Positions 3,915 through 50,160 of a stretch of 64,000 nt of DNA are shown here, one piece after another. The translations under genes were made by a program, and so were the position numbers. The stretch is taken from contig CM059428.1 in the NCBI GenBank assembly GCA_030390025.1, forward strand, positions 92,690,001 through 92,754,000. The letters are read 5' to 3'. The notes beneath the pieces were generated by a model that did not search any database, was not told the DNA's origin, and saw only the letters and a program-made list of their open reading frames with translations. This DNA is from Squalus acanthias (lineage: Eukaryota). Positions within the stretch are counted from its first letter, which is position 1. Every line of letters starts with the position of its first letter.

Positions 3915-4483
3915 TGAAGCCTTTCCACCACCTACACGGCACAAGTCAGGAGTGTGATGGAATACTCTCCACTTGCCTGGATGAGTGCAGCTCCAACAAC
4001 ACTAAAGAAGCTCGACACCATCCAGGACAAAGCAGCCCGCTTGATTGGCACCCCATCCACCACCTCAAACATTCACTCCCTCCACCACCAGCGCACCGTG
4101 CCTGCAGTGTGTACCATCTACAAGATGCACTGCAGCAACTCACCAAGGCTTCTTCGGCGGCACCTCCCAAACCCGCGACCTCTTCTACCTAGAAGGACAA
4201 GGGCAGCAGGCGCATGGGAACACCACCACCTCCAAGTTCCCCTCCAAGTTCCCCTCCAAGTCACACACCATCCTGACTTGGAAATATATCGCCGTTCCTT
4301 CATCGTCGCTGAGTCAAAATCCTGGAACTCCCTCCCTAACAGCACTGTGGGAGTACCTTCACCACACGGACTACAGCGGTTCAAGAAGACAGCTCACCAC
4401 CACCTTCTCAAGGGTAATTAGGGATGGGCAATAAATGCTGGCCTTGCCAGCGATGCCCACATCGAAGGAACGAATAAAAAAAT
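3915..4483 (+). mobile_element. 5'-truncated LINE (Jockey/CR1-group), ORF2 C-terminus and 3' tail
   Basis: MEYSPLAWMSAAPTTLKKLDTIQDKAARLI; near-identical to copies at 9063-10632, 25945-28783 and 50298-50862; A-rich tail. Confidence 0.9.
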
Positions 4484-9062: not shown

Positions 9063-10632
9063 ATTTTTTTGTGGGCGTCATTGTCAAGGCCAGCATTTAT
9101 TGCCCATCCCTAATTGCCCTTGAGAAGGTGGTGGTGAGCCGTCTTCTGGAACCGCTGCAGTCCGTGTGGTGAAGATACTCTCACAGTACTGTCGGGAGGG
9201 AGTTCCAGGATTTTGACCCAGCGACGATGAAGGAACAGGCGATATATTTCCAAGTCAGGATGGTGTGTGACTTGGAGGGGAACTTGGAGGTGGTGGTGTT
9301 CCCATGCGCCTGCTGCCTTTGTCCTTCTAGGTGGTAGAGGTCGCGGGTTTGGGAGGTGCTGCCGAAGAAGCCTTGGCGAGTTGTTGCAGTGCATCTTGTA
9401 GATGGTACACACTGCAGCCACGGTACGCCAGTGGTGGAGGGAGTGAATGTTTAAGGTGGTGGATGGGGTGCCAGTCAAGTGGGCTGCTTTGTCTGGATGG
9501 TGTCGAGCTGCTTTAGTGTTGTTGGAGCTGCACTCATCCAGGCAAGTGGAGAATATTCCATCACACTCCTTACTTGTGCCTTGTAGATGGTGGAAAGGCT
9601 TTGGAGAATCAGGAGGTGAGACACTCACTGCAGAATACCTAGCCTCTGACCTGCTCTTGTTGCCACAGTATTTATGTGGCTGGTCCAGTTAAGTTTCTGG
9701 TCAATGGTGACCCCCAAGATGTTGATGGTGGGGGATTCGGCTATGGTAATGCTGTTGAATGTCAAGGGGCGGTGGTTAGACTCTTGCTTGATGGAGATAG
9801 TCATTTCCTGGCACTTGTGTGGCGCAAATGTTACCTGCCACTTATCAGCCCAAGCCTGAATGTCGTCCAGGTCTTGTGGCATGCGGGCATGGACTGCTTC
9901 ATTTTCTGAGGAGTTGTGAATGGCACTGAACACTGTGCGATCATCAGCGAACATCCCCATTTCTGACCTTATGTTGGAGGGAAGGTCATTGATGAAGCAG
10001 CTGAAGATGCTTGGCCTAGGACCGTGCCCTGAGGAACTTCTGCAGCGTTATCCTGGGGTTGTGATGATTGACCTCCAACCATCACAACCATCTTCCTTTG
10101 TGCTGAGTATGATTTCAGCCAGTGGAGTGTTTTCCCCCGATTCCTTTTGACTTCAGTTTTACTAGGGCTCCTTGATGCCACACTCGGTCAAATGCTGCCT
10201 TGATGTCAAGGGCAGTCACTCTCACCTCACCTCTGGAATTCAGTTCCTTTGTCCATGTTTGGACCAAGGCTGTAATGAGGTCTGAAGCCGAGTGGTCCTG
10301 GCGGAGCCCAAACTTGGCATCAGTGAGCTGGTTATTTGTGAGTCAGTGCCGCTTGATAGCACTGCCGATGACACCTTCCATCACTTTGCTGATGATTGCG
10401 AGTAGACTGATGGGGCGGTAATTGGCCGGATTGGAATTGTCCTGCTTTTTGTGGACAGGACATACCTGGGCAGTTTTCCAGATTGTCAGATAGATGCCAG
10501 TGTTGTAGCTGTACTGGAACAGCTTGGCTAGAGGCGCGGCTAGTTCTGGAGCACAAGTCTTCAGCACGACAGCTGGGATGTTGTCGGGGCCCATAGCCTT
10601 TGCTGTATCCAGTCTGCTCAGCTGTTTCTTCA
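9063..10632 (-). mobile_element. 5'-truncated LINE (RT domain and 3' end) nested in the Harbinger element
   Basis: KAMGPDNIP..NYRPISLLAIISKVME..MFADD RT motifs across frameshifted ORFs. Confidence 0.92.
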
Positions 10633-11499
10633 AGTTATTTCACAGCTGTTCACTTCTCAATCTTAGAAACTGGAGCATTAATGATTTGGAACCCACTTTT
10701 GAGCTTTATGCACTTTTGAAGTGTTTGCAGTAATCTCTCTATCCACTGTCACCTCCTTGGAACAACATGTCTCAACATTGACAGATTACTTCTGTCATCT
10801 CAAACTCACCTGCCATCTATTCCATCAGCATCGGAGCCCTTGAAATAATCTCACCTTGGTCCTCAGAATCCCAACACCAGCATCACCGGGCAAACCAGCA
10901 GCACCAACATCCACACCAAATCTCCGCAATCAACTGATGCTGCACTGGACACAGGGCATCATCAACCATGCACATTGCTGCCCGGGATGCCAGTGATGGC
11001 CTCACTATGTCCAAATTAGCTGTACACCCTGGTTGCCACATGATGCACCAGGTTGGCACCACCATAAAGCACCATAAAGCATGCCTACAGTGTCCAAGCC
11101 ATTCCTTTCACACTCAGCACCATTGGGGAGGGGGGAAGTTATGTCTCACCATTCACTGGAACTCACTAAGACACTTGCAAAGGCACACACAAATCTGTCC
11201 AAGAAGGCGAGGTGTTGAAAATAAAGATTTCAATGCTTGACACCACATTAACAGACACTTTACACAAACATTGGCTAAAGCACACAAGTGCCTACCCTTG
11301 TGTGTTGTTAGTTTGAATGATTGGACAAGGGTGAGGGTGAGTGTGAGTGGTGGCTAGTGAGATGGGGAAGTGATAATGTAGATAGAGTAGAGGTGTAAGG
11401 CAAGTTGGTGGGAGTACGGATGTGCAGGAGCAGGGTAGGGAAGGCAGAGTGATGTGGATGTGATGAGTGGCACAGCAGGATGAGGTTGAGTGTGGCTTT

Positions 11500-11818
11500 G
11501 CAGTAACATTTTGTGATCTACTGTGATCATTGAAAGGTTTGCACCACTGCAGCCAGGTCCTCCTGACGACATCCCTGCTGGTGCCCTCCTGTGTAATGTG
11601 CAACCAGGCTGTGTTGGTCTCCTGGGGAGGTGTCTTTTGCCCATTGGAAGGGAAGAGAACCTCTCTGCGTGCTGTGACTCCCTCCATAAGCAGATGGAGG
11701 GAGCAATGGGAGAGCCTGGGTGCAGCCGTGCACCTTTGTGCAGTGCTTGTCAGTGTTTGCAGCACCTCAATGCTGCAGAACACTGACAGCACAACTGTCA
11801 AAAATGATTGTGGACATG
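11500..11818 (-). pseudogene. Harbinger Myb/SANT-like DNA-binding protein, exon 1 remnant
   Basis: AAPRLS..LHLLMEGVTARREVLF..AWLHI..VVRRTWLQWCKPFND has the trihelix Myb/SANT pattern of Harbinger ORF2 proteins. Confidence 0.75.
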
Positions 11819-12217
11819 GTCCCTTTAAGGAAACCGGCTGATGACGCGTCATCAAATGACGTCATCAGACCCGCTTCCTATTAATTGGCCCCATCAACAG
11901 AATATCTTATTGGAGGCCGGGATCGACACAGATGCCTGGTCCCCACACGCCACGGACATCGCCCGCCCCGGACCCGCCGAGGTTGGAAAAATCCAGCCCA
12001 GTACTCCAGCTGAGGCCTAACCAGTGATTTATAAATGTTTAGCATAACTAACTTGCTTTTGTACTTTATGTCCCCGATATTTACAGGGAGGGTGCAGGGC
12101 GGCCGTTTTGCAGTCGGGAAACCCAGAAGAACGGGTTTCCCTCAGGACCTGCCGAATTTAACAGCAGGTCCTGATTACCATTTTTGAAATCCATTTCCCA
12201 GCTGCAGCCAGCCAGTT

Positions 12218-12318: not shown

Positions 12319-13349
12319 CTTCTGATCTTGACTTTATGCAATGGTGTAAAATGGGTGATAGCAAGTCAGCAGCCTGTTTTACATCTCTCCCGATTTTTAT
12401 TTCCATTGACTTTAATCTGTTGACCCCAATCTGTTAAAGAAAGCAAATATATGACTATTGTAACATCTGTATCTGTATGTTCCTCTTTACTGCATACAAG
12501 TGGAGATTGACACTGTCCCACCATGCTTGTCTTCTGTTTGGTGATTTCCTTCCACAACGTGAATGGGACTGTGGTCTTATTGATGCAAAGAATTGCAAAC
12601 AGAAATCCATGTACTAATACACCATAGCAATGTGTCACACACAGACACCAACATCAACTGCAGTGCCAGTATATTGACCATAATGCTCCACTCTCAAATA
12701 TCACTTACATTTGACATAATTTTAGAACACCATTTTGCATATAATGGATAAAATCTTTTCATAGCCAATGTTTAGCTTTGTTTTTAATGCAGCCCAATTA
12801 TTTATACAGTCTTAGTATTGCCAGCAAAAAAGAGATTAATTATAGTATTAAAAAAGATAGCATGGTGCTACTTGTGCTGATCTGGACAGAACTATAATTG
12901 GCATTGCTCTTTAGTAAACTGTGCACTTTTTGTCTTTGTTTTTATGTCTAGAATAACTACTTCTTCAAACCAGCTGATTATTCTCCTTTAGTCCAAAAAT
13001 AGCACAATGGGGCCCAGTTTGCAAAGGGCAGTTGGGACAAGTAGAGAAAGGATCCCTGCTATGATTAGAACTGCACGCCAATAATCCTTACAGGATTAAG
13101 GTTTACAAATTATCACTCAGCACCCACTGCGACATTTGTTGAAAACTGAAATCACAATAATATAAACTTACACAAAGATACTTAAAACAAGGAATGAGAG
13201 GAAAATGTGCACAGGATCTTTCCACAAGGTTTGCACCATTACATTTTCTTTCCACATAATTTAGTTTTCATCAGATGTTTCTGTTCTGAAGATAAAGGGT
13301 AGAAGTATCTTGCCACAAGTCAAGTAGGTGTAACCCCTGGATGATACAA

Positions 13350-18243: not shown

Positions 18244-18598
18244 CTGTCTCCTTTTCTAAATCGAAAAACAAATAACTGTAAACAGAATCTTGGCATTTTT
18301 GATGTCTCTTGTCTTTAGAATGTTAAGTCTCGTGTTTCCCTGCCTCATAATTCTAAATACAGAGCAAAATCATTGTGATGACTGTCTGTAAGTGGTATAT
18401 TTATCTTTACAAAGCGTTAAGATTATAATATAGTGCCAGGGATCTACTGGGGAGGGGTACTAGCTGTAGTAAAATTGTGAACATGTTCTTTATGAATGAG
18501 TTAACAATTTTGCTACAGTTGCACACAGAGTAAGTCTTCACCTTGATATCTCTCCCGATGACCTAATTGAGATTTATAATTTGCCACTTTAGGAATTG

Positions 18599-18748
18599 TG
18601 GGCATGAAATTGGTCTTGGACAGTAGTGCAAAACAGGCGATAGCGAATCGGCAGCCCGGTTTGCACTATGCTCGATTTCCATTGAAGTCAATGGGCTGTC
18701 GATTCGCTATTGTCAATTTTGCACACCACCCAAGACCAATGTCCCCAC
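18599..18748. repeat. Palindromic mini-element (CCATTGAAGTCAATGG-centred family)
   Basis: ATTGGTCTTGG..GTGCAAAA..ATAGCGAATCG / CGATTCGCTAT..TTTTGCAC..CCAAGACCAAT arms. Confidence 0.85.
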
Positions 18749-19345: not shown

Positions 19346-19541
19346 TGCGATGGAATTCTGCTAGATTTAAGCAATATGCCCTTGGAAGGCATAGCTATTT
19401 TGAATATACCAAGCATACATGGTGGATCAAACCTTTGGGGAGAGAGCAAAAAAAGACGCAGTTATCATCGAACCAGTAAAAAGGTGCCAGATAAACGGAC
19501 GACAGTTATAGATGCCAAAGAGCTGAAATTCTGTGTTCAAG
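19346..19541 (+). CDS. DGKB: Diacylglycerol kinase beta, internal coding exon (accessory catalytic domain), 196 nt
   Basis: ttcctctttccAG acceptor, GTAGGA donor; [56 protein letters not shown]; the ESKKRRS..DKRTTV.DAKELKF segment is characteristic of DGKB. Confidence 0.96.
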
Positions 19542-20347: not shown

Positions 20348-21016
20348 AACACACTCACACACACACTCACACACACACTCTCACATACACACGCACACAC
20401 TCACACACTCTCGCACACACACACACTCTCACACACACTCACACACACACTCTCACATACACACGCACANNNNNNNNNNNNNNNNNNNNNNNNNNNNNNN
20501 NNNNNNNNNNNNNNNNNNNNNNNNNNNNNNNNNNNNNNNNNNNNNNNNNNNNNNNNNNNNNNNNNNNNNNNNNNNNNNNNNNNNNNNNNNNNNNNNNNNN
20601 NNNNNNNNNNNNNNNNNNNNNNNNNCACTCTCATACATACTCTCACACACACACACACACTCTTTCTCACACNNNNNNNNNNNNNNNNNNNNNNNNNNNN
20701 NNNNNNNNNNNNNNNNNNNNNNNNNNNNNNNNNNNNNNNNNNNNNNNNNNNNNNNNNNNNNNNNNNNNNNNNNNNNNNNNNNNNNNNNNNNNNNNNNNNN
20801 NNNNNNNNNNNNNNNNNNNNNNNNNNNNNNNNNNNNNNNNNNNNNNNNNNNNNNNNNNNNNNNNNNNNNNNNNNNNNNNNNNNNNNNNNNNNNNNNNNNN
20901 NNNNNNNNNNNNNNNNNNNNNNNNNNNNNNNNNNNNNNNNNNNNNNNNNNNNNNNNNNNNNNNNNNNNNNNNNNNCACTCACCCCCCCCCCCCCACCCCC
21001 ACTCACACACACACTC
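20348..21016. repeat. Compound (CA)n/(CT) microsatellite containing two N-runs (20470-20625, 20673-20975)
   Basis: Directly visible. Confidence 0.97.
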
Positions 21017-21240
21017 AGGCATCAGACAGGTAAGGATTAAATTGGTGGAGTTTTCTATGAGGGAAAAACAACTTTGCTGCTCCTTATTTATTCCACTGCC
21101 ACATACAAATGGTAACTTCTGCCATTCCCTCTGGAAAGATCACTTGTGAACACTGTCGTATTCAATGCACCAATAGAGTGCTGTTGGCCCTCTCCTCTAT
21201 TCAGAAGATCATACGTTAGGCCTCGTCTCCCTGAATCTGT

Positions 21241-21382
21241 GGGGTAATTTTAACTTTATCACCAGTAAAAACTGGGTGATAACAAATCGGCCTCTCGTTT
21301 TACACCTTGCCCAATTTCTGCTGTTGGGTTGCCGATTCGCTATCACCCATTTTATGCCCAGCAATAAAATTCAAATTATCCC
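21241..21382. repeat. Palindromic mini-element
   Basis: GGGGTAATTT..GGGTGATA / TATCACCC..AAATTATCCC arms; same family as 18599-18748. Confidence 0.8.
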
Positions 21383-21672
21383 TCTTTCCTTGGTTCTCTT
21401 TCTCCTTTCACAAGAGCAAATTTCTAATTATCTCCAAGATTAAATAAACTTCAAATTATTGCTTATTGGCACGCTCTGTTCTGTTTTCTTACTGCACAAT
21501 CTGCCCTGTGTGCTATTTTAGTTCAACAGTGATTTTTTTTTCAAGTTTTATTTACTTTTTTATAAAGTTTTGTAAAGCCACTATCTTGTTCTGATTCACT
21601 GAAGCTATCTTGTGTCGTCAAGGCCAATTAAACTTGCATATGTGCCCATCAACTCCACTTTGACCTCTAGAT

Positions 21673-22300
21673 CATGGGTTCTCAACCGGGGGTCCATGGC
21701 CCCCTAGGGGTCTGTGAGAAGATTTCAAGGGATCCACGCCACAGGGGATCGACTGGTTTTAGCAGGTGGCTTTGGGTGGACCTGCCCCACTGCTGCCACC
21801 TGCAGGTGGCACCCTGCGGGGAAGTCGGCGGCCGGGCCTGGGCTCCCTGGGCCTTCGGTGGCGGTAGAGGTGCGCGCTGCCTGTGGGCGCTCATCGAACC
21901 AATCAAGAGCGACAGGTGGAGGAGGAAGATGGGCCAGAGCTTTTGCGGGAAACCAAAGACTTGGGGGCCATCACACTCTGCCAAGCCAGCCCGGGGCCTC
22001 GGTCTCTGTTTTAAATCAGTGCGGGTGGGCCTGAGGGATAAAAACCTACAAAATTACCCCGTAGGAGCCATGATGAAGGTACAGGTGAACGACATGGTGG
22101 TGCTGGACAACCCGTCGCCGTCTTTCAACCCTTTTCAGTTCGAGCCTATGCACTTTACTGGATACTGGATTAGAAGTAAAACCGTCAAGCGCTCTTTTAA
22201 TCAGATCTGTTTCACTGCTGGCAATCTTTGCACAGATCTTCTTCAACAGAAGGTGCAACTGTATTGTCAGTGAATTGTTGTTTTAGGACCTTGGTCCCCT
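21673..22300 (+). mobile_element. hAT (Charlie-like) non-autonomous element with captured host sequence; right end not identified
   Basis: CTCTAGAT (21665-21672) fits the NTCTAGAN Charlie target and is immediately followed by CATGGGTTCTCAACC (cf. CAGTGGTTCTCAA TIR); abrupt GC-rich island in an AT-rich intron. Confidence 0.6.
22070..22144 (+). pseudogene. ASF1A: Fragment of histone chaperone ASF1 (first 25 codons) with Kozak context
   Basis: GCC-ATG then MMKVQVNDMVVLDNPSPSFNPFQFE versus recalled human ASF1A MAKVQVNNVVVLDNPSPFYNPFQFE (20/25 identical); similarity stops abruptly with no splice donor. Confidence 0.88.
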
Positions 22301-25300
22301 CAGCATGCCCCAGTCCAGTCAAAAGCAGAAAATGTGAGATATGCACAGCAGGTCTGCCAGCATCTGAAAAAATAGGTCGCTATTTTGGGTAGGGACACTT
22401 ATTGAACCAACAAAAAAAAATCTCTATTCAAAACAATAACCCATGTTTTTTCTTTTTAGATGCTGAATGAGATTTCGGGAAGGTGCAGTTTTCTTTTTCC
22501 TTTTAAACATTTCATTGTATTTTCTATGGTGGATGCAGTAACATTTTTCACTCCTAACACACTGTCCTGTTGTTGAGGCCTGTTATCTGATCCCACCTTC
22601 ACAATTAAAAAAATACTGACCCGTTTCAAAAGTTGGTACATATAAACTTCTACGATCCTACAATATGTTTTATTGCTGCTGAGAAACCGTATAAAAAGGA
22701 ATAGAAGGAGCACTCTTACAAATAATTATTTCAACAAAGGTTTCCATTTTTGATAAGTGAAAAGCAGGATGGTTGCCATGATGGCCATGAGATCGTGTAG
22801 GGTCTTCTGCATAAATTGAGTTTCGCACCTGAGCCAGCGAGACCAAAAATCACTAAAGGTGTGCACGACACAGCAGCATTAGGCAATGATGATAGGTTTG
22901 TGCCCATTAAATGCATATTTAGTAGCTTAAGGACGGGCTCAGCAGCATTTTGCAGATACGTTCCAATTGGCTTCTCCGTTATCTGTTAGTTGTAATGCAT
23001 CTGAACTTGGACTGAATAAAGTTGCACAGGCCTGGCAGTATGCTAAAAATAGAGCAAGTAAAAATTAACATGCATTTAACAGACTCGCAGGGCAATAAGA
23101 GCAAATTAACCCACAAAGAGAAAACAAGTTATTCATTAGGTTAAGTTTAGCGTATGGATTTCTGAGTTCTTAATCACATGCACTGATTCTGCACAAAATA
23201 CCTGACTAAATCAACCTCATTTTTCTTTTATTTAAAAAAAGAAACTTGAAAAATATTCCCCTTTTTTCTTGTTTTCAAGAGACCTCATTTTCAAGGAGGC
23301 CTAATTGTCTTCCATTGGGAGTTTTTAATCTGGAACCTGCTGCCGGTAAAGGTCTGGGTCTGATACTAAATAACAAGCACTGGAAATGATATTGTGGAAC
23401 TAGAAAGTACCGTGGCACTAGAAGCTGACAGCATGAAGACTCGGGAGCAGAGTAAATGAACCATGTAAAAAGCAATGTCAGCGCGGGCTAATCTGCACCT
23501 GTGACTGTCAGTACTGCTGGTGTAGATTCAGATTTAGTACCAGTACGTGCAGAAGTGGTACTGATGCAGGTTTAATATTTCTACCAGGCACCAACTACTT
23601 TTTTCCCTCCTGAAGACTGACTCATGCTGGGGTAAAATTCCATATGCGCCTGCAGTAGCTATCCTTCAAGTGTGAAGTGGCCATCTAATTGAGGCTTTTA
23701 AAATTCTGGAAGGTTTTAAGCAGCAAAAGGCTACTTCCAGTAGTTGGCGAATCAGTAACAAGAGGGTGCAAACTCAGGGTTATTACTAGAAGAGTGATGG
23801 AGGAAGTTAGAAGGGATAGTAGAACAGGGAATGCTTTACCACAAGTATTGAGGCAGATGCCCCAATATTAACTGGAGAGGTGGGGCAGTGGGGGCGGTTT
23901 TTGGTGGGTGTGAATTGATTCCAGTTCAAAACTCACCCGCTCAGGATAAAGTGAGGCCCGGGTTATTTTAACTCCTGGGCCTCAATTAAAAGCCGCCAGT
24001 CGACTTGCTACCCATTAGGGGTAGAAAGTCAGCACAAAGCACCGCAAATTCGCACAGCTCAGAGGCCACACACCAAGAGAAGAATCAGCTTCCGGGGATC
24101 CCTATGATCGAGAGGGGAGGGCACGATTGCAGCAGAAGAGGCCTAAGATTCCCTATGAGACCTGGAGGTCCAGCAAAGTAGTCACTGTGAGCAGCAAATG
24201 CAACATCCTAGATTGGAAAAAGTCGATGTAAATGATTGTCTCACACGAAGAAGTGTTTGGGACTCTGTACAGTGGTGTTGGAGGAGGTGATTGGGCAGGT
24301 CTTTCAGTTCCTGCGATTACAGGGAAAAGTTCCAGCTGGAAATTGGGGTGGTGGAAGAGTGAACAATTCTGTCCCAGAGTGAGTAATCCCACCAGAAAGC
24401 AAAGAGGAAGGGAAAGGGAAGTGCTTGGTGGTGTGATCATGTTGTAGGAGATGGAAATTGCAGAAAGTGGTCTGGCAAATATGGAGACTAGTAGAATGAA
24501 ACTTTCTCCTGAATCTACTCTGAGCTGAAGAATTTATGATATAAAGGGGGAGTTTGAAGCTGTGCTTCCATTACAACACACAGACACAGGTTAGTCCTGC
24601 TGCAATTGGACAAAGGAGTTAGATAAAACTAGTTGATTCATCCCATGGGGTTAACATACTTCTATTTATAGCAGTGGCCTGGTTGTGTTGGTTTTCATTT
24701 GACAGGTAGTAAAGGTGCTAGTTTTCATGGATCTCATATGTCTTGTGCATTGAAGTCCCTCCTGACTTCAGGTGTTTCCTCTGTAGACCCCTGACGGATT
24801 CTTTTCTCCCCTTTTTAAAAGACTAACTGTCTGACAGGTTGACTAATGTTTGCTTGCAAGAAATAAAAAGTAATATATAATGTCCTGGAGCTGTAACCAT
24901 TCTTGTTGCCATAATCATTATTTGAGAAGTGGTTAAAAAAAATAGAATACAGGTGAGAATTAGAATAGATTTTTTTTAATAGACTTTGGTGAGGACAAAG
25001 TCAGATTCGCAAGTCAGCACAAACCAAAAGAAGTATTAATCTAACCAGGATTGTTCTGCCCAGAAACTTTACTGCCTTAAAGGTGCAATCCATTTATATC
25101 AGCAAAAACTGCTAATGTAGTTTATAGCCTTAAAATTGGGCGACTCGGCTCCTGGTGTACAGTCTCGCTCAACAAAATGCTGATCGGAGAATCAGCTCAA
25201 AGGTTTGAGCGGCTAATTCGTGGTACTGCCAATATTCTGACCATTAAAACCAATAGACAGAAAATTGGGAGTGTCACGAATTAGGCACAATAAGCCCCAC

Positions 25301-25356: not shown

Positions 25357-25531
25357 CGGGATCATTTTAACTTTTATCACCAGGCAAAAATCGGATGATA
25401 GTGAATCGGTAGTGCATTTCACACCTTGCCCGATTTTGTTTTCTATGGAAAAGAAAATTGGGCAAGGTGTAAAAAAGGCTCCCGATTGGCTATCACCTGT
25501 TGTCGTGATGATAAACGCTAAAATGACCCCC
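25357..25531. repeat. Palindromic mini-element
   Basis: TCATTTT..TTTATCA..CACCTTGCCCGATTTT / AAAATTGGGCAAGGTG..TGATAAA..AAAATGA arms. Confidence 0.8.
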
Positions 25532-25554
25532 TATAAGTGTGTTAAGAGATTCAG

Positions 25555-25940: not shown

Positions 25941-25944
25941 TCAT

Positions 25945-28783
25945 TTTTTTATTTGTTTATGGGATGTGAGCGTCGCTGGCAAGGCCGGCATTTATTGCCC
26001 ATCCCTAATTGCCCTTGAGAAGGTGGTGGTGAGCCGCCTTCTTGAACCACTGCAGTCCATGTGGTGATGGTAGTCCCACAGTGCTGTTCTGGGAGGGAGT
26101 TCCAGGATTTTGACCCAGCGACTATGAACGATCGGCGATATACTTCTAAGTCAGGATGGTGTGTGACTTGGAGGGGAACTTGGAGGTGGTGGTGTTCCCA
26201 TGCACCTGCTGCCCTTGTCCTTCTAGGTGGAAGAGGTCGCGGGTTTGGGAGGTGCTGCCAAGGAAGCCTTGGTGAGTTGCTGCAGTGCATCTTGTAGATG
26301 GTACACACTGCACCCACGGTACGCCGGTGGTGGAGGGAGTGAATGTTTAAGGTGGTGGATGGGGTGCCAATCAAGCGGGCTGCTTTGTCCTGGATGGTGT
26401 CGAGCTTCTTGAGTGTTGTTGGAGCTGCACTCATCCAGGCAAGTGGAGAGTATTCCATCACATTCCTTACTTGTGCCTTGTAGATGGTGGAAAGGCTTTG
26501 GGGAGTCAGGAGGTGAGACACTCACCGCAGAATACCTAGCCTCTGACCTGCTTTTGTTGCCACAGTATTTATGTGGCTGGTCCAGTTAAGTTTCTGGTCA
26601 ATGGTGACCCCCAGGATGTTGATGGTGGGGGATTCGGTGATGGAAATGCTGTTGAATGTCAAGGGGAGGTGGTTAGACTCTCGTTTGTTGGAGATAGTCA
26701 TTGCCTGGCACTTCTGTGGCGCGAATGTTACCTGCCACTTATCAGCCCAAGCCTGAACGTCGTCCAGGTCTTGTTGCATGCGGGCATGGACTGCTTCATT
26801 ATCTGAGGAGTTGTGAATGGCACTGAACACTGTACAGTCATCAGCAAACATCCCCATTTCTGACATTATGTTGGAGGGAAGGTCATTGATGAAGCAGCTG
26901 AAGATGCTTGGGCCTAGGACACTGCCCTGAGGAACTCCTGCAGCGATGTCCTGGGGCTGAGATGATTGACCTTCAACCACCACAACCATCTTCCTTTGTG
27001 CTAGGTATGACTCCAGCCAGTGGAACGTTTTCCCCCCCGATTCCCATTGACTTCAGTTTTACTAGGACTCCTTGATGCCATACTCGGTCAAATGCTGCCT
27101 TGATGTCAAGGGCAGTCACTATCACCTCACCCCTGGAATTCAGCTCATTTGTCCATGTTTGGACCAAGGCTGTAATGAGGTCGGGAGCCAAGTAATCTTG
27201 GCGGAAACCAAACTGGGCAGCAGTGAGCAGGTTTTTGGTGAGTAAGTGCCGCTTGATAGCACTGTCGACGACACCTTCCATCACTTTGCTGATGATTGAG
27301 AGTAGACTGATGGGGCGGTAATTGGCCGGGTTTGATTTGTCCTGCATTTTGTGGACAGGACATACCTGGGCAGTTTTCCACATTGTCCGGTAGAAGCCAG
27401 TGTTGTAGCTGTACTGGAACAGCTTGGCTAGAGGCACGGCTAGTTCTGGAGCACAAGTCTTCGGCACGATAGCCGATTTTGTTTGGGGCCCATAGCCTTT
27501 GCTGTATCCAGTGCGCTCAGTCGTTTCTTGATATCACGTGGAGTGAATCGAATTGGCTGAAGACTGGCTTCTGTGATGGTGGGGACCTCTGGAGGAGGCC
27601 GATATGGATCATCACTTCTGTCTGAAGATGGTTGCAAACACTTCAGCCTTGACTTTTGCACTCACATGCTGGGCTCCACCATCATTGAGGATGGGGATAT
27701 TCATGGAGCCTCCTCCCCCATTAGTTGTTTAATGGTCCACCACCATTCACGACTGGATGTGGCAGGACTGCAGAGCTTTGATCTGATCCGTTGATTGTGG
27801 GATCGCTGAGCCCTGTCTATAGCATGCTTCTTCCGCTTTTTAGCATGCATGTAGTCCTGTGTTGCAGCTTCCCCAGGTTGGCACCTCATTTTTAGGTACG
27901 CCTGGTGCTGCTCCTGGCATGCTCTTCTACACTCCTTATTGAAACAGGGTTGGTCCCCTGGCTTGATAGGTAATGGTAGAGTGAGGGATATGCCAGGCCA
28001 TGAGGTTACAGATTGTAGTGGAATACAATTCTGCTGCTGCTGATGGCCCATAGCGCCTCATGGATGCCCAGTTTTGAGCTGCTAGATCTGTTCTGAATCT
28101 ATCCCATTTAGCACGGTGGTAGTGCCACACAACACGATGGAGGGTGTCCTCAGTGTGAAGATGGGACTTCGTCTCCACAATGACTGTGCGGTGGTCACTG
28201 CTACCAATACTACCATGGACAGATGCATCTGTGACAGGTAGATTGGTGAGGACGATGTCAAGTAGGTTTTTCCCTCATGTTGGTTCTCTCACCACCTGTC
28301 GCAAGCCCAGACTGGCAGTTATGTCCTTCAGGACTCGGCCAGCTCGGTCAGTAGTGGTGCTACCGAGCCACTCTTGGTGATGGACATTGAAGTCCCCCAC
28401 CCAGAGTACACTCTGTGCCCTTGCTACTCTCAGTGCTTCTTCCAAATGGTGTTCAACATGGAGGAGTACTGATTCATCAGCTGAGGGAGGGTGGCAAGTG
28501 GTAATCAGCAAGAGGTTTCCTTGCCCATGCTTGACTTGAAGCCATGAGACTTCATGGGGTCCGGAGTCAATGTTGAGGGCTCCCAGGGCCACTCCTTCCC
28601 GACTGTATACCACTGTGCCACCACCCCTGGTAGGTCTGTCCTGCCGGTGGGACAGGACATACCCAGGGATGGTGATGGAGGAGTTTGGGACATTGGCTGA
28701 AACGTATGATTCTGTGAGTATGACTATGTTGCTTGACTAGTCTGTGGGACAGCTCTCCCAATTTTGGCACAAGTCCCCAGATG
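25945..28783 (-). mobile_element. Near-complete ORF2 of a Jockey/CR1-group LINE (APE endonuclease + RT), frameshifted
   Basis: APE motifs (KLGELSHRLVKQ, WVGDFNVHH), RT motifs (NYRPISLL, QFGFR, ALDIKAAFDRVWH, GVPQGSVLGP, MFADD), 3' tail. Confidence 0.95.
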
Positions 28784-30129: not shown

Positions 30130-32983
30130 GGAAAGTTGTTATTTTTGGGAGCAGGTTGAGAACCCGCTGTCATCCCGCTCCCATGCGCCTTTCCCCAGGC
30201 GCATCTGTCAGTGCATATGCGACCCAACTGGCAGAGGCAGGCGACCAAATTTAAAGTATTAGCAGCTTGTTGTCAGACCCTTAAGAGTGGTTTTAACCTT
30301 ACCTTTTAAATTTAGCTGGATGGCCACGGGAAACATGCTGCTCGGGAACTACGTCTGTCAACCTGAGGCAGGAGTTCAGTGGCCATTGCTCCAGCTGATT
30401 ACTTGACAGCATGAAATGTACTTTAAAAGCTCCCACTTGACAGATGATCACTTTCCTCAACAGAAGCTGTTTCTCACTGCATTCCCAGCACAGATTCTGT
30501 AGGCTGCAGTCTTTCCAGCAAAGTCGCCATCCAGTCTCACCTCATTGGAAGAACCTCTCTCACCAGTGACAGATTGCTTCTGTCATCTCTACTTGACCTG
30601 CCATCTATTCCATCAGCATGGATGCCATTTATACTGTCTCACCTTGGTCCTCAGAATCTGACCACGATGAGCCCCAACACCAGCAGCACCAGGCACACTA
30701 GCAGCACCAACAACACCACCAACCTTCTCCGCAATCACCTGATGCTGCACAGGACACAGGGCATCAGCACCCGACCATATTGCTGCCTGGGAGGCCTGGG
30801 ATGGCCTCATCATGGCCAGATTTACTTCACTTGACGCTGTACACCCATATGGCTGCCACATGATGTGCCAGGTTGGCACCACCCCACAGCAACATCATAA
30901 GACATCCCTGCAATGACCAAGCCATTCCTTTCACACTCACCACCATCACTGGAGATACTGTTATGTCTCACCATTCACTGCAACTCACTAAGCCACTTAC
31001 AAAGGTCACACAAATCTGTCCAAGACCAGAAAGTGTTGAAAATAAAGATTTTTATGTTTGACAGCACATTAACGGAAACTTTACATAAGCATTGGATAAA
31101 ACACCCAAGTGGCTACCCTTGTGAATCTACTTGCATGCCATCTTTCTCTTCTGCGTGCTTCTATGAGGTGCTAGGCCTGTGGCTTCAGCAGAGGTAGAGG
31201 CAGCCTGCTCAGTTCCCTACTGCCAAGGAGCTGGAGAGCACCTTGCTGCACATCAGTGGGGCCATGAGGACCCACATCTACGCTGACATCCCTCCTAGAG
31301 AGGAGGTCTATGAGCCTCTGCCATCTATTCTCCATAGATAGCCATCCATCCTCCATATAGAGACCATGTGCTCCTGTGAGTGGCGCATTAGCTGCTCCAT
31401 GCAGGTGGCCACCCTATCCATGGAGGAGCCTACAGTCGCCATCGCCTGTGACACGGAGGTGCTCATGTTGGAGATGGACTCCTCCATTCTTTGAACATTT
31501 GCAGACATTGGGCTCGCAAAACCTGTCAGAGCCTCCTGTACTTCCTGCACGACCAGGATCGCCCTCTTTCTGGATGGCCCCCGAGGCTCAGCGTCTGCAT
31601 GCAGCTGAGCAGAGCTGGGAGCGTCCTGCGCCCTCCAGCGAGGACTCTCCACTGCTGTCCCTGTCTCCACCATCTGCTCTTGCTCACTTGTGAGTTGTGA
31701 GACACCACGTGACAACGCTACTCGATCTCGCGTGGCACCCACCCAGGTGGGTGTATCTGCGCTGGTGCTGGGCGCGCTTATGTCTGGTGATGCTGCACCC
31801 TCAGAGGCTGGAGGCTCCTCTGAGGAGTCATCTTCCTCTTGCTCCTGGACAGTAGTGGCGGTGGGAGGCGGCGGGGGGGGGGCTCTTGATGGACCTCTGG
31901 GAGAGTAAAGAGATGAGTTAGATATGCCATATGAAGAATGGGTACAGATATCATTATGCACATGATGACCATTCAGTGGCTGCTGACATCAGTGTCCATA
32001 TGAGTGACTGATATATGCCATGTAGCTGTATGATATGTAATTCTGTCACCAGGTTGCTGAGATGTCCCCCTCTCTCCATCTCCCACCTCCAGCTGCTCGG
32101 CGACTCCAGATATTTCTAAAGCAGCCTCCGCTGCTGTTGTAAGGTTTGCAAATAATGGAGGGCCACCGCTGGTTCTCTCCCTCTCCCTCTTATTTTGGGC
32201 TCTCTTTTCCTGCAAAGAGGGAAAGAAGAGAAGATTGTGAGAGTGCAGGAATGAGTGTAAGGAATGGATGGGTTATGTCTTTAGAGGGTGACTATGATGG
32301 AATTGGGTGCCAAAGCCAAGTGGCCTCTTTGTGTGTTGTTAGTTGGTATGATTGCACTAGAATGAGGGTGAGTGTGAGGGGCGGCTAGTGAGATGGGGAT
32401 GTGATAATGTAGATAGAGAGAGAGGGATGGGTGGTCATACAAGGTAAGTTGGTGTGAGTAAGGATGTGCAGGAGTAGGGTTGGGAAGGCAGAGTGATGGA
32501 GATGTGATGAGAGGCACAGCAGGATGAAGGTGAGTGTGGCTTTGTACTCACCTTTCCTGATCTACTGAGATCATTGAAATGTTTGCAGCACTGCACCCAG
32601 GTCCTCCTGACCATATCCCTGCTGGTGACCTCCTCTGCAATCTCCAACCAGGCTGTTTTGGTGTCCTGGGGAGGTCTCTTCTGCCCATTGAAAAGGAAGA
32701 GGACCTCCCTGCGTGCTCTGACTCCCTCCATAAGCACTATGTTACATTGACATTCAAATCCAATATGACCATGGCTCCTTGAAAGATCTCAGCTGAAAAC
32801 ACGTCATCGATGACGTCACCAGACCCACACCATTTAATTGGGCTAGGTAACCCGCAGGGCGGGCTTAATAGGCCCTATTAACGTAAAGTTGTTTATAGCA
32901 GCGGGATGGAGCCAGCAGTGGGGTCGCGACCTGCCATCGCCACCACCCGCAGCGGACCCGCCCAGGTAAGCAAAATTCCGGCC
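30130..32983. mobile_element. PIF/Harbinger element with deleted transposase and 3-exon Myb/SANT gene remnant
   Basis: Right terminus GCAAAATTCCGGCC; 30520-31125 and 32300-32740 are homologous to the interior of 8706-11999; left end degenerate. Confidence 0.8.
31308..32737 (-). pseudogene. Harbinger Myb/SANT-like protein (exons ~32737-32552, 32209-32050, 31896-~31308)
   Basis: LMEGVRARREVLF..AWLEIAEEV..RRTWVQCCKHFNDLSRSGK|GTGAGT; EKRAQNKRERERTSGGPP; acidic, low-complexity exon 3; canonical GT-AG sites. Confidence 0.82.
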
Positions 32984-42597: not shown

Positions 42598-44291
42598 ATG
42601 GCTGATCCCACTCCCAGCGAGAGAGCTTGTCAGTTCACGGATGAGGCATTGGACGCAGGAGTGGAGCGAAGGAGGGCAGTGCTGTTCCCGGATACTGGAA
42701 GGAGGCCATTGCCCTAGGTATTCAGGGCAATGTGGAGGGAAGTGGCCCAGGAGGTCTCGGCCTGTAGTGTGGGTGAACGCAGCCTGACACAGTGCCAGAA
42801 GAAATTCAACGACCTCACTCGGGCGGTCAAGGTGAGTACATGCTTCAACTAGTCCTACATACCAACATCTGAACCTCAGTCTGTACACACTGCACAAACC
42901 AGCACACCCCCACCACTCACCCACCAAGCATCTGCACCTACTCAAACTCACATCCACATCTCACTCTTTGCCTACAATCACAGCTATTCAACTACGGCAG
43001 GCATATCTACCAAACACATAGCTGGACTCTGACTCACACACATTAATTTCTCTTGCAGGCCAAGATGGCTCACAATAGGAGGGAGCAGCAGAGAAGAGGC
43101 GGGGGTGATGCGCAGCTCCAGCAGCTCTCAGACCTGGAGGAGCGAGTGCTGCGACTCATTGGGCAGCAGGTGGTGGGCGTCATGGCCCTTGGCAACATCG
43201 ACCCCCTTGGGGGCAACAACGGTATGTTCATCCCCTCTCATTCTCTTATCCTACTTCCCCCTCACACCACAAGCCTTTCCCACTTTCCAGCTCCTGATAC
43301 TGTCTGCATTCCTTGCTCCCTTCCTACCCCTCTTCCCTCACCTTAACACGAGTCTTGTGTCTTTATGCTTTCAGAGAATCAGCAACCAGATGACCAGCCT
43401 GTTCCTGAGCCTTCCACTGAGAGGGAGGAAGGAGAAGAGAAGGAGGAGCAAAGCACCGCGTCACTGCATCTCTCACCCGCAAGCACCACCTCAGATACTG
43501 GCACTACGCGATCTTGAGGCAAGTTTAGTGGAGGGGTCTGCACCGGGGACGAGCAGGCTGCAACAAGGCCAGGAGGAAAGGGTAGCTCGGGAGCCAGCTC
43601 CCCAGTGTACAAGTTCACGCCCATTATTTCCACTCTGCAGAGGATGGTGGACTCCCAGAGAGACCGTGGCGACCCAGACCTCATGCCGCGTGTGCTGGGC
43701 GATAAGGCAGCTTCCATTGCAGCACAGGTGGAAGCCGCGCAACGTCTTAGTGCTGTAATGCAGTCTATGGTTGGTGGCATCGAGTCTCAGACTGCTCTCG
43801 TGCAGTATCAGCTTGATACCACGCAAGCTCTGACTGCTGCCATCGTCGCTGGGTGCACCACAGTCCACTGAGGATCTCACGGTGTTGCAGCAGGCCACCA
43901 ATCTGTGCTCCAGCAGATTGGTAGCGATGCTGAGGTGCTCCCCTGGGGGAGTGGGAGTGGGTCAGTGGAGTGGGAAGCTGCTGTCCTCTCTCAGAATGAC
44001 AGCATTCCTGCTCCCACCACTGCCACTCCACCATTGCACTTGTCGCTGTCTGTCATCCAGCCAGCCCAGACTGCCGTCGCCCATCCTGAGGTGGTGCAGT
44101 CTACAGCCGGGCCTTCCAGGCCCAGAGCTGGTCGAGGGCGTCCTGCAAGGCCATCTGTAGTATCTGGCACCGACACTCAGCAGCCTTCCACCAGCCCTGC
44201 TGCAGTCACTGGGGAGACACTACGTAGGAGCACTAGATTAGGAAAAGGCACTGTAAAGAGGGGAAGTAAGGGTTTGCACAAGGATGATTAG
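42598..44291 (+). pseudogene. Harbinger Myb/SANT-like protein (exons 42598-42831, 43059-43221, 43375-44291)
   Basis: MADPTPSERACQFTDEALDA..RRAVLFP..MWREVAQEV..QCQKKFNDLTRAVK|GTGAGT; AKMAHNRREQQRRGGG; GT-AG sites; in-frame stops (e.g. 42715) and a deletion relative to the 47415 copy. Confidence 0.88.
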
Positions 44292-44449
44292 TTAATATTG
44301 TTGCTGTATATATGTGGTTGCTGAATTTGGATAAATTTATTATTGGAATGTTGCAGATTTGGGGCTGTGTCTCATTTCAGCTTTGGGGTGTGGTATGGAA
44401 TGAGAATTTGATGGAATGATGGGGACTGGATGAGCGAATGGGAAGTGGC

Positions 44450-45577
44450 CTCAAATTCATTGGAACCGCAGTCTGATGAGGCGTCCACAAGGCCGATGGA
44501 GTGGCTGGATCCTCCGTCGCTGCTGTTCGTGCTCCTGTACCTCCTCCTCCTCCTCCTCCTCTTCCTCCTCCTGCGGCTATGCCTGGTGGCAATGGCTGTG
44601 CCCTCATGATGGCCAAGTTGTGCAGCATGCAGCAGACGACGACGAAAAGGGATAGCCGCTCAGCCGAGTACTGGAGGGCTCCTCCTGAACGGTCAAGGCA
44701 GCGGAATCGTTGCTTGAGCACTCCGATGATCTGCTCGATGATATTCCTGGTGGCAGCATGGCTCTCATTGTATGAGTGTTGGGCACGAGTGCTGGGGTTG
44801 CAGGGGGAGTCATGAGCCAGCTGGAGAGCGGATAGCCCTTGTCTCCCAGCAGCCATCTGCTAGCTTGATGTGGTGGCTAGAAGAGGGCTGGTACACCGGT
44901 CTGACGCAGGATGAAGGCATCATGGCTGCTGCCAGGATAGCGGGCATTGACGGTGAGGATGCGTTGTGTGTGGTCGCACACCAACTGCCTTTGCGGTTAC
45001 GGAATACCTCAGGATTGTTATGAGGTGCCCACAAAACGACATGGGTGCAGTCAATGGCACCCTGCACCATGGGGAAGCCCGCTATCCTGGCAAAGCCACA
45101 TGCACGTTCGTCCTGCTTCTCTCTGGTCATGGGGAAGGAAATGTAGTCCCTTCTCCTTCTCTAGAGAGCATCTGTGACCTCGTGGATGCAGCAATGGACG
45201 GCAAAATGTGATATGTTAGATACGTCTCCTGTTGCACACTGGAAGGATCCACTGGCATAGAAATTGAGGACGATGATGACCTTGACTGCCACTGAGAGAG
45301 ACGTGGTGCTCCAGATGTGAGGTTCGAGGTCTGGCTGCAGGAGGTGGCAGAGCTCTGTGACCATGTCCTTGGTGAAGCGGAGCCTTCTAAGACATTGCTC
45401 CTCAGTAAGATTGATGTAGGAGAAATGCTGCCAGAATACCCTGGGAGGGTAAGGCCTCCTGCTGAGAGCCCTGTTGGCCCTCCTCCCTCTGGCCAAATTT
45501 TGCAATCTTTCTCTCTGCCTCTGCTGCCTCTGACGGTGACGCTGGAGGACGAGGTCCAGTGCCAGTACAGCCCCCAT
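44450..45577 (-). pseudogene. HARBI1-like DDE transposase, frameshifted
   Basis: CLRRLRF, LNFYASGSFQ, GFPMVQGAIDCTH, FRNRKG, YPGSSHDAFIL, LLGDKGYP, HAATRNIIEQIIGVLKQRFRCLD, CCMLHNLA. Confidence 0.93.
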
Positions 45578-45750
45578 TAAATGATGGAAATGTTGCAATA
45601 TCAAATGTAACCCAAATGAAAGTGATAAATTTTTCTCAGCCAGAATATTCCTTCAAGTTGAAAACGCTCAAATCGCTCAAAACGCCTGTTTGCTTTTATC
45701 AAACTGACAAGGCAGCATTCTTTGCCGACAAAAAAAACGGAAGTTGACGC

Positions 45751-45760
45751 CTTTATATAG
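45751..45760 (-). promoter_or_regulatory. TATA box of the Harbinger transposase gene
   Basis: CTATATAAAG on the minus strand ~175 bp upstream of ATG 45577; the equivalent position in MITE 53800-54693 reads CTATTTAAAG. Confidence 0.55.
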
Positions 45761-46552
45761 CGCTCCTCAAGCACTCATCCGATTGAATCCTGCCTCCTCT
45801 ACCTGTCGTTGCTAATGGCAGGCGCTCAGGCAGGGGGCGAGAGTGAATTTCAGAGCCGGGGCGCTGTGCACCCAGATGACATCATGATCTCCGGCCGCAG
45901 GAGAGCGTGGCGCTAGTGGTTACCGCCATCGCAAACCTCCACTTCAATTTTGTGGATGTCGGTACTATCGCCACGCCCAGTCGCAAAGCCGGTAACGCCC
46001 CGTTAGCGCCCCCCGGAGGTGCTAACGGGAGGCGCTAAGGTGCCCAATTTCTCCCCCTAAGAGACAAGGGTTGCTTTTTTTTAACCTCTAGCTCCTGATC
46101 AGGAGCCTTACATGCTAAGAACAAATCTTGGTGATTCAGGAATCCATCTGACCTGCCCACGATTTTCTGACCTTTTTTTAGATGGCTGGAAAATCTTATG
46201 CAGTATGCACCAGAATTTCTAATATGTGCTCTTGGCAGTTGAGGTTCTCTGCTGGTAACTGAAAGTCGGAACATTACCCTGACAGTGTCTGGTCTCCTGT
46301 CTCTGGTTGGGTGGGGTTCAATACCATTCATGCCATTTTCAGTTATTTATCTGTTTAGTCACAATGGTGCACAATCAACAGATAGTGGCCCCTTTAACTC
46401 CCAGCGATCCAGCACAGTAACAGTGATGTGAAAGCAAACTGAAAGAACATTTAGCATTTTACCATTCATCCAGTGTTTAGCATCTTAATGGTAAGAATCT
46501 CAATTAGTGCTGAGGTATGTAGTACAAATAAAGCTTGCTTCAGGGATCTTCT

Positions 46553-47414: not shown

Positions 47415-49655
47415 ACAATGTAAAAAGAAAATACAGAGACGAAGGGCGGTGCTCTACCTGGCAAGTGGCAGGAGGCCCTCATCACAAGTCTTCCACACTA
47501 TCTGGAAGGAGCTAGCACAGCAGGTCTTGGGCAGCACTGTGGTCCCCAGGACCCACACACAGTGCAGGAAGAAATTTAGCAACCTCACTCGGGTGGTCAG
47601 GGTGAGTCAATGCTTCAGCAAATGCTACATACCACCATCTGAACCATAACTTCACACACTGCCCAAAGCACCACACCCCCAGCACTCACCCACCAACTAT
47701 CTCTACCTAGCAACACTCACACCCACATCTCACACCTTGCACACAATGACTGCTATTCAACTATGGCAGGCACATCACCCAAACACATTGCTCCACACTC
47801 ACTCACACACTTTCCTTTCTCTTGCAGGCCAAGGTGGCTCACAACAGGAGGGAGCAGGAGCGCACAGGCGGGGGACAAGCCAACACCCAATCTCTGTCTG
47901 TGCTGGAGAATCAAGTGCTGCAGATTATTGGGCGGCAGGTGGTGGGCGCCGTGGCCACCGGTGACGTTGACCCCCTTGAGGACAACAATGGTATATTCAT
48001 CGCTACTCCTTCTTCTCACACCCCACTTCCCCCTCACCCCACAAGTGTTTCGCACTTTCCAGCTAATCATGCTGTACACATGCATTTCTCCCTTTCTGCA
48101 CCCCTCCCCTCACCTTAACACGACTCTTGAGCACCGGAGCAGCCTGTCCCTGAGGGCACCATAGAGAGCGAGGCAGGAGAAAAGGAAGAGGAAGAACACA
48201 CCGCGTCACTGCATCTCTCACCCGCAGACACCAGCTCAGATACTGGCACTACGCGTTCTTTAGAGGCTAGTATAGTAACGGGATCTGCACAGGGTGAGGC
48301 ACCGGGGAACGAGTGGGCTGCAGCAAGGCCAGAGGGAAAGGGTAGCTCGGGAGCCAGCTCCCCAGAAGGTGAGTTTGCGTGCAAGTTCTGCTGCACAGGA
48401 CTCAGATGAGGACCTCGATTTGGAGATGTTTAGATGAAGGGTGATGGGCATGCACACGGAGATGATAGGTGCAATGGCAAGGATGCCCGAGAGCCTCTCG
48501 GCAATGGTAAGGAGTGTGGAGGAGTCCACCTCCAGCATTGCACAAGGCTCTGCGCACATCGTGGAGCCCATCATTTGCAGTCTGCAAAGGATGGTAGACT
48601 CCCAGAGAGACCGTGGCGACCCAGACCTGATGCCGCGTGTGATGGGCAATCTGGCAGCTTCCATTGCAGCACAAGTGGAAGTGATGCAACATCTTAGTGC
48701 TGTAATGCAGTCTATGCTTGGTGGCATCCAATCTCAGACTGCTCTCATGCAGTCTCAGCTTGATGCCACGAAGCTCTGACTGCTGCCATCGTGGCTGGGT
48801 CTACCACCGTCGACCGGGGCTTTCACGGTGCCGCAGCAGGCCAGCAATCTGTGCTCCAACAGATTGGTAGTGATGCTGAGGTGCTGCCCTGGGGGAGTGG
48901 CAGTGGGTCAGTGGAGCAGGAACCTGCTGTCCTCTCTCAGGATGACAGCATTCCTGCTCCCACCACTGTCACTCCGCCATTGCCCTTGTCACTGTCTGTC
49001 ATCCAGCCAGCCCAGACAGCTGCCGCCCATGCTGAAGTGGTGCAGCCTACAGTCGGGCCTTGCAGGTCCAGAGCTAGTCGAGGGCATCCTGCAAGGCCAT
49101 CTGAAGTCTCCACCAGCCGTGCTGCAGCCATTGGGCCAACACTTCTTAGGAGCACTAGAGTAGGAAAAGGCACAATAACGAGAGGCACTAAAGGATTGCA
49201 CAAGGGTGAATAGTTAATATTTTTGCTGTAAATATGTGTTTACTGATTTTTTGATAAATTTATTAATTCACTTACCATTCTTTTGTGGTGTCTGTCATTT
49301 CAGCTTTGCGCTGTGATACAGCTTACGAGAGGGATGGAATGATGGGGATGTGGTGATCAAAGGAGATCTGGGGTTTAAGTCATCCTGCTGTGAGGCTGGA
49401 GGTCTGTTTGGAGAAGGTGGCAGAGTTCTGTGACCACCACCTTGGTGAGGCGGAGCCGTCTAATACACTGCTCCTCGCTTCATTGAAGGTAGGAGAAGTG
49501 CTCTCGGAATACCCTCGAAGGGTAAGGCCTCCTGGTGAGAGTCCTGATGTCCCTCCTCAAATCTCTGCACACATGTTCCCGTATTTCTGGCTGCCTACAC
49601 TCCCTCCACCATAGATCCTGGAGGGCGAGGTGGCATGTCAGTACAGCCCCTATTA
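47415..49655. mobile_element. Second, deleted copy of the 42291-46057 Harbinger family (Myb/SANT gene on +, transposase 5' remnant on - at ~49385-49655)
   Basis: RRRAVLY..QCRKKFSNLTRVVR|GTGAGT; AKVAHNRREQERTGGG; SQRDRGDPDLMPRV shared with the first copy; RRPYPSRVFREHFSYL on minus. Confidence 0.88.
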
Positions 49656-49664
49656 ATGTTACTA

Positions 49665-50160
49665 AAGGCCCCAAAAAAGTTAGCGCCCCCGCGCCCGAAA
49701 TTGAATGGTAGCGCCCCAAGCAGGAGGCGGGGCGCTACTGGAAGCGCTCGAGAGGAGTGCCGGGCTGACCGATCGCGGCCGGCACCCCGCAGGAGGAGGC
49801 AAAAGGGGGCAGGTGCTGGCAGGCGGCCCAAAAAGAAAGGCTGCCCGGCACCTGCCCTTTAATTTGCGCTGCCCCAGCCGCAAACATGGCACCCTGACCC
49901 TGTCGGACATAGCATCCGGTGGTAGGTCAGGGGGCGCGATCAAAGTATGCGGTCGGGGCGCTACGAGGCGCTGCACACGGTGATGATGTCATCGCTGGAG
50001 ACGCAGCACCACGGGGAGCTACCGGCTGCCGCCGCTAACCTCCCACTAAATTTCGCGGGAGGCGTTAGCGGCACCGTGCCTGGGCGCTAGGTGCTTTTTG
50101 CCCCCTTATCGTGCCCTCGGGGCATTAACGGGAGGCGCAAAGCAACCCAATTTTTCCCCC
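49665..50160. mobile_element. Harbinger MITE (family of 1766-2462) lacking its left TIR
   Basis: Collinear similarity with 1820-2462; ends CCAATTTTTCCCCC. Confidence 0.85.

Follow-up and report, generated by a model that had tools for sequence, protein, structure and literature searches.

An intron of a diacylglycerol kinase gene in Squalus acanthias holds the decayed 5' fragment of a gene, joined to a single end of a hAT transposon, a locus whose broad kind is known. The fragment derives from ASF1, and the junction to its left is a genuine hAT terminus inserted at a preferred target, since the combination of target site and TIR exceeds chance. The reading that we favor, with a probability of about 0.45, is that the locus is a dead, one-ended Pack-TIR-like relic, in which 5' DNA of ASF1 would have been template-switched into a hAT element that later lost its right side. 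All coordinates refer to the window, the whole 64-kb stretch of DNA that was analyzed, in which the following features are distinguished:

19346–19541, + strand: host exon, diacylglycerol kinase accessory domain (Pfam DAGK_acc, E 7e-7; AG/GT borders read)
21665–21672, no strand assigned: one half of the hAT target site, CTCTAGAT, fitting NTCTAGAN (motif from Table 1 of PMC3014272)
21673–21688, + strand: hAT TIR of the SPIN/Charlie type, CATGGGTTCTCAACCG, 13/16 to the TIRs of SPIN_AC, SPIN_NA1 and hAT-N1
21674–22273, + strand: 199-codon open frame with its ATG inside the TIR, running through the ASF1 piece; probably incidental
21689–21752, + strand: likely hAT subterminal region with GGG(G/A)TC repeats; inner boundary approximate
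21753–22069, + strand: GC-rich block resembling a promoter and 5'UTR, running directly into the ASF1 start codon; probably the promoter and 5'UTR of ASF1
21897–21905, + strand: NF-Y-type CCAAT box AACCAATCA (such a box is present in 89 of 2000 shuffles)
21921–21932: 5'UTR-like motif GGAGGAAGATGG
21945–21952, + strand: candidate E2F-type site GCGGGAAA
22070–22144, + strand: decayed ASF1A-like codons 1–25, broken off after E25
22145–22450, no strand assigned: sequence past the ASF1 break, 40.5% GC, CpG o/e 0.24; intron-like composition, no gene match
22438–22445, − strand: candidate right-end remnant AACCCATG, an exact inverse match to TIR bases 1–8; unproven

The host gene is recognized by DAGK_acc exons on the + strand, at ~1500–1610 and 19346–19541, and the fused feature lies on the same strand, 2.1 kb into the intron that follows the second of these. 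An earlier note, made from the sequence by a model, had placed it in an intron of DGKB; the domain match bears out the diacylglycerol kinase intron, and the paralogue is, going by resemblance, presumably DGKB. The exon had no match in PDB. A short-motif scan showed no further diacylglycerol kinase exon 3' of 19542, through 64000, which suggests that the host intron is longer than 44 kb. The local flanks are AT-rich, as had been described: 38–39% GC over 600 bp on each side, against 45% for the whole window.

The hAT terminus and the search for its partner

What marks the left junction as a transposon end? Charlie-related hATs of lizards have the target NTCTAGAN and TIRs such as CAGTGGTTCTCAACCT (PMC3014272, Table 1). 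Here, CATGGGTTCTCAACC begins at 21673, directly 3' of the CTCTAGAT target, exactly as the earlier note had it, so that an 8-bp NTCTAGAN-type target abuts a TIR of the CAG..GGTTCTCAACC type; the proposed check of this start for hAT homology came out in its favor, with 13 of 16 bases shared with published SPIN/Charlie-type TIRs. The YARNG start given for hATs in the portion of that source available (PMC3014272) fails at position 3, where the locus reads CAT, and the T of this CAT (published starts are CAG/YARNG) makes the ATG of the long open frame. By itself the TIR is not significant, there being nine sites in the window within three mismatches of the published motifs; among these, the target motif precedes only the one at 21673. 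Jointly, target motif and TIR have 3/16 mismatches, against 8 for the next best of the 26 NTCTAGAN site-orientations in the window, and three mismatches or fewer were reached in 1 of 300 simulated windows. Farther in, GGG(G/A)TC occurs at 21689, 21707 and 21729 and not again before 24095; going by hAT anatomy, these may be transposase-binding repeats. A perfect 18-bp palindrome, TGCCACCTGCAGGTGGCA, lies at 21794–21811, near the presumed boundary between hAT and cargo, and is the second longest of nine perfect palindromes of at least 14 bp in the window.

A complete hAT element is not supported: the searches of the 42 kb downstream brought up neither an inverted second TIR nor, beyond the cargo, a duplicate of the target. 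A scan with the element's own TIR returned five matches where 3.8 are expected, TIR-plus-target composites of four lengths did no better over those 42 kb than shuffled patterns, and a gapped TIR-plus-target search stayed at chance level (478/1000). Published TIRs have 44 sites within four mismatches, none of which, downstream, combines a good TIR with a good target. The sole other exact CTCTAGAT in the window, at 55118, has no TIR adjoining it. Individual right-end candidates were rejected or stayed unproven: the best composite, at 62949/62950 (16/23), was equalled by 25 of 100 shuffled patterns, the site at 30154 has no target copy, and the one at 61756 was not upheld in the right-end searches.

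This leaves the remnant at 22438–22445. The sequence AACCCATG occurs only once downstream, and 81 of 5000 simulations yield one in 1056 nt; the remaining TIR bases do not match, and the score for TIR plus target is that of chance. It is possible that this was the right end, in which case the element would span 773 bp, but the point is left unproven. The right boundary given earlier, 22300, has no structural mark. Among 77 open frames of at least 30 codons between 22274 and 25950, searched against Pfam, no hAT transposase was found (one of the 77 had any match, which was below its cut-off).

The ASF1 piece, its upstream block and the tail

The claim of 25 codons that are 20/25 identical to the ASF1A N-terminus holds: residues 1–25 of human ASF1A are matched with 33 bits (E 7e-8; ASF1B 17.5 bits), and the match stops at codon 25, although the assignment to ASF1A over ASF1B was made against human proteins only. 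The ATG at 22070 had been called a Kozak start; in its GCC-ATG context the purine at −3 is there, but +4 is A, not G. The five residue differences from human ASF1A need at least six non-synonymous base changes over ~61 sites. Since this N-terminal stretch is strongly conserved in vertebrates, the differences are read as neutral decay, although one or two could be native to the host gene; that at codon 9 is compatible with CpG decay. GC3 of the piece is 21/25. The fragment ends, at codon 25, presumably before the first intron of the gene, and 25 of the ~155 core residues cannot make a histone chaperone. The 64-kb window contains neither the parental ASF1 exon nor a second copy of the ASF1 piece or GC-rich block. 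Misassembly of the real ASF1A gene is unlikely, given the five changed residues, though there are N gaps 700 bp upstream. A tandem duplication of TACTGGA, of the type found at repair junctions, lies 11 bp past the break, at 22156–22170; there are 16 such duplications window-wide.

The simplest reading of the block at 21753–22069 is that it represents the ASF1 promoter and 5'UTR, which would have been copied together with the start codon as a single segment. The host-gene sequence demonstrated as ASF1-derived amounts to 75 bp, to which 310 bp upstream would probably be added (the Pack-TIR range is 100–5000 bp). Between 21761 and 22069 the GC content is 63%, with a CpG o/e of 0.53, and between 21673 and 22144 it is 60%, with 0.57. 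The CpG-island-like character noted earlier stands on the loose thresholds (a GC content of 50% or more and an o/e of 0.6 or more over at least 200 bp), by which 28 200-bp sub-windows pass, and falls on the strict ones (at least 500 bp, 55% and 0.65), by which no 500-bp sub-window does. The loose pass says little alone, because 54 of 631 200-bp tiles across the window pass too. The best similarity to the block elsewhere in the window has an E of 0.74, and the block is unlike the window's other GC-rich repeats. An excess of TpG/CpA, a sign of CpG decay, is seen only in 21761–21900 (o/e 1.52, compared to 1.20 for the whole block and 1.27 for the window).

A CCAAT core (21899–21903) and the GGAGGAAGATGG motif (21921–21932) are present where the earlier note placed them. 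The NF-Y and E2F motifs occur together in 134 of 20,000 shuffles; of 1257 overlapping tiles of the window, 5 contain both, and each of these lies at the feature. Both motifs were picked post hoc, after the sequence had been viewed. Four of the nine motif patterns tried in the block (GC box, NRF1, ETS and TATA) are absent or at chance. Moreover, the consulted part of a review gives human ASF1B, not ASF1A, as induced by E2F1 (PMC13757706), which weakens a specific E2F link to ASF1A. At most, the block acts as a cryptic intronic promoter. Within GGAGGAAGATGG, the ATG at 21929–21931 is in frame with the ASF1 ATG, 47 codons upstream of it. The CCAAT region (21885–21908) also resembles a part of the tail (22393–22416) in 14 of the first 18 bases, with all four differences being transitions; 4 of 300 shuffles score as high, and the likeness is marginal after several tests.

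At 22145 the composition falls to flank level. The earlier note had taken 22145–22275 for an unrelated captured piece in a multi-gene mosaic, a view that finds no support in the flank-like composition or in the protein comparisons, which could reveal coding donors only and gave no second match; most simply, the tail is host intron reached by deletion. Five open frames overlapping 22145–22390 have no credible match in PDB or Pfam (one of the five was compared with Pfam only), and none of the other tail frames scores below E 0.5 against PDB. An origin of the tail from MCM9, the neighbour gene of ASF1A, read on the minus strand, has no support in PDB or Pfam. The minus-strand tail frame gave three matches in a representative library, all artefacts: these are long proteins built of repeats, in which many weak stretches add up to the score. 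No poly(A) signal was found near the A9 run at 22412, and the direct repeats flanking the block come to one 9-mer, below the ~2 expected by chance (an arithmetic estimate); the poly(A) tail and flanking direct repeat of a processed pseudogene are accordingly missing. A strong splice-acceptor-like tract ends at 22459 (22446–22482), with a weak donor-like site 23 nt on, which could be a cryptic micro-exon or chance.

The stop-free 199-codon frame reported earlier does run through the ASF1 piece. The 132 codons upstream of the ASF1 ATG are open in 574 of 20,000 shuffles (~3%) and the 42 codons downstream of the piece in 1986 of 20,000, making the frame mildly unusual for a single frame in GC-rich DNA. 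Could it be a functional chimeric gene or an alternative exon, with a frame of 199, 114 or 67 codons? This is highly improbable. It is the sole open frame of six over 21674–22270, blockwise shuffles leave any frame open in only 112 of 20,000 (a figure that takes in the 25 codons whose openness is inherited), the three ATGs, at 21674, 21929 and 22070, share one frame, and the Atlas recognition score of the 199-aa frame is 2926, where 9 of 100 shuffled sequences reach 2300. Against this, there are at least six amino-acid-changing substitutions within 25 codons, the upstream openness is no rarer than the figure just given, the first ATG sits in the TIR, upstream of the promoter motifs, and no strong acceptor stands in front. 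Neither the protein-collection nor the Atlas searches returned homologues of the frame, a result of little weight since they also missed ASF1 itself.

Origin of the fusion

How would such a fusion have come about? A non-autonomous hAT of the SPIN/Charlie type would have been inserted by a hAT transposase at a NTCTAGAN site, the event of which the left junction is the visible product. When a break within one copy of the element was repaired, synthesis may then have switched template to the ASF1 locus and copied ~390 bp of promoter/5'UTR plus codons 1–25. This mechanism is borrowed from the gap-filling model, as presented in the consulted part of PMC8277862, and is suggested here because the copied sequence is contiguous, has promoter motifs and shows no marks of a retrocopy. 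The element's right side, including its TIR and the second target copy, would later have been deleted or have decayed, so that the break after codon 25 may be a deletion breakpoint rather than a capture breakpoint. Since then the locus would have drifted neutrally, transposition being impossible with one altered end.

The relic reading is favored by a target and TIR beyond chance, the subterminal repeats, the ASF1A match and NF-Y and E2F motifs that co-occur only at the feature, as well as by the missing poly(A) signal, the composition step at 22145 and the non-synonymous changes. On the other hand, the right end is absent, so capture within an element is putative. The parent exon lies outside the window, whereas 57% of published cases are within 15 kb of their parent, and it is multicopy cases that more typically have distal and GC-rich cargo (PMC8277862). 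The induction of ASF1B rather than ASF1A by E2F1, the post hoc choice of motifs and the restriction of the TpG/CpA excess to 21761–21900 also count against it. A 5'-only fragment had earlier been taken as a sign of DNA-level capture. A hAT terminus at its preferred target, together with an ASF1A-like fragment contiguous with promoter-like DNA, does favor copying at the DNA level over ordinary retroposition, but the right side is lost, and the argument from the 5'-only fragment is weakened because that loss could also have cut the exon.

It is rather unlikely that the locus is instead a one-sided copy of a multicopy Pack-hAT family, in which the ASF1 5' end was captured once and spread by transposase, with or without further pieces. 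The clean, transposase-type insertion at the left junction and a parent that is absent from the window are what such a family would leave, and what is left of a worn right end could be the 8-mer at 22438, with its exact inverse match. The multicopy Pack-TIRs in the literature favor GC-rich cargo, are distal and include a hAT with a 5'UTR; in one published family, three of five copies lost or gained TE on one side. Multicopy elements, however, make up only 4 of the 281 unique cases in the survey (all as given in the consulted part of PMC8277862). There is no second copy within 64 kb, the right end is at chance level, and the tail resembles intron, not first exon. Protein and contig searches produced no other copy, but were nearly blind here, as shown by their failure to return ASF1 itself. 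Stray eukaryotic copies were absent from the prokaryotic genomes covered by two pattern scans.

Alternatively, the transposon may have captured nothing. A hAT end might already have stood upstream of ASF1 in a donor and been copied with it as a block by templated repair, or the two might have become neighbors by chance, after separate arrivals and a deletion; we regard this as rather unlikely. Either course accounts for the single TIR, the single target half and a break in the middle of an exon with no need for a lost right end, and the inner boundary of the hAT part is not fixed by the sequence at the locus. No positive sign points this way, however, and either the donor must have had a hAT remnant ~400 bp ahead of its ASF1 start codon or one more event is needed. 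Also unlikely, in our view, is a 5'-complete ASF1A retrocopy in or beside the hAT, followed by deletion of its 3' part, the poly(A) and the hAT right end. A single deletion would then explain why the exon is broken off and why a TIR is missing, LINE remains that include RT and endonuclease domains are numerous in the window, a long 5'UTR could account for the GC-rich block, and the fragment stops short of any exon junction at which the loss of an intron would show. Yet the CCAAT and E2F-type motifs suggest DNA upstream of the start site, and both flanking duplication and poly(A) tail are absent. Retrocopies are also scarcer outside mammals, according to the consulted part of PMC13320880.

Relation to known elements and genomic surroundings

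Vertebrate Pack-hATs are a class already known, and novelty of the class is not supported: surveying 100 animal genomes, Tan et al. (2021) count 370 Pack-TIRs, of which 208 are hATs, with a median cargo of 224 bp and copies that often lose TE on one side (PMC8277862). The frog Pack-hAT-N8_XT (hAT-N8_XT), for example, carries 291 bp of CAPSL 5'UTR at three sites. The elephant shark, the one cartilaginous fish found in the survey table, has 0 cases, and a term search of 12 supplementary files found neither ASF1 nor DGKB. The earlier note's rule that a single-copy fragment would refute the proposal is too strict, since most published animal Pack-TIRs are single-copy (all PMC8277862). Like these, the locus has a hAT end next to host sequence from the 5' part of a gene, some hundreds of bp in length, in an intron, with cargo near the published size. 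It works like a Pack-hAT and yet fails the definition, which asks for parts of the same TE on both sides of the cargo (PMC8277862): there is one end and one target half. Its cargo also looks older than the survey's 90% identity cut allows (~10% non-synonymous change relative to human) and, unlike that of the frog element, takes in the start codon and 25 codons.

Among hATs, the locus resembles the SPIN/Charlie-related elements (hAT-N1_AC and SPIN_NA1_AC of Anolis, and hAT-HT) in its TIR and 8-bp NTCTAGAN target, but starts with CAT, not YARNG, and has neither a second TIR nor a transposase (PMC3014272, in the part consulted). The GC-rich cargo preference of plant Pack-MULEs and Pack-hATs is described in the available portions of PMC5861414 and PMC8903248; the locus shares with them GC-rich genic cargo and a local GC more than 10 points over the flanks, but lacks paired TIRs and a TSD and gives no sign of several donors or of a family. 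Unprocessed pseudogene fragments, as treated in the consulted part of PMC13320880, are likewise partial, decayed and dispersed, with no sign of splicing or poly(A), but the locus, unlike these, abuts a hAT end whose target-site junction is intact. The open-access literature that was searched yielded no description of a transposon carrying ASF1. Plant Pack elements prefer capturing 5' gene ends specifically.

Why does the locus matter? As found, it is one more dispersed, decayed gene fragment adjoining a DNA-transposon end, but it would be more important if multicopy. That it represents a worn member of a multicopy hAT family, one that captured the ASF1 core promoter (NF-Y and E2F), 5'UTR and start codon and scattered them genome-wide, is unlikely. 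If true, such a family would have seeded introns with cell-cycle-type promoters and short, ASF1-initiated chimeric frames, some of them transcribed, and the spread of a whole promoter and start codon would offer a countable test of host-promoter distribution by vertebrate DNA transposons.

The surroundings hold other mobile elements. Rfam gave no matches over 21000–24000, nor did BLASTN against phages and plasmids. LINE remains (RVT_1, endonuclease) are abundant in the window, as are DDE_Tnp_4/Myb elements. One LINE with RT and endonuclease domains lies at 25944–28736 (minus strand), and its partial copies at 3917–4483, 9070–10630 and 50320–50860 are 90–93% identical, indicating a fairly young family. 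Assembly gaps, within a (CA)n-type array, occupy 20470–20625 and 20673–20975. An old palindromic MITE-like repeat family has copies at 21240–21385, 25357–25532, 18598–18740, 58838–58933, 12326–12396 and 59613–59697, one of which is ~290 bp upstream of the hAT end. Finally, a Harbinger-like element is present in two diverged copies (74–83%), at 42665–46061 and 47435–50164, with a DDE_Tnp_4 frame at 44380–44859; related Myb/SANT frames are found at 11295–11861 and 32438–32788.
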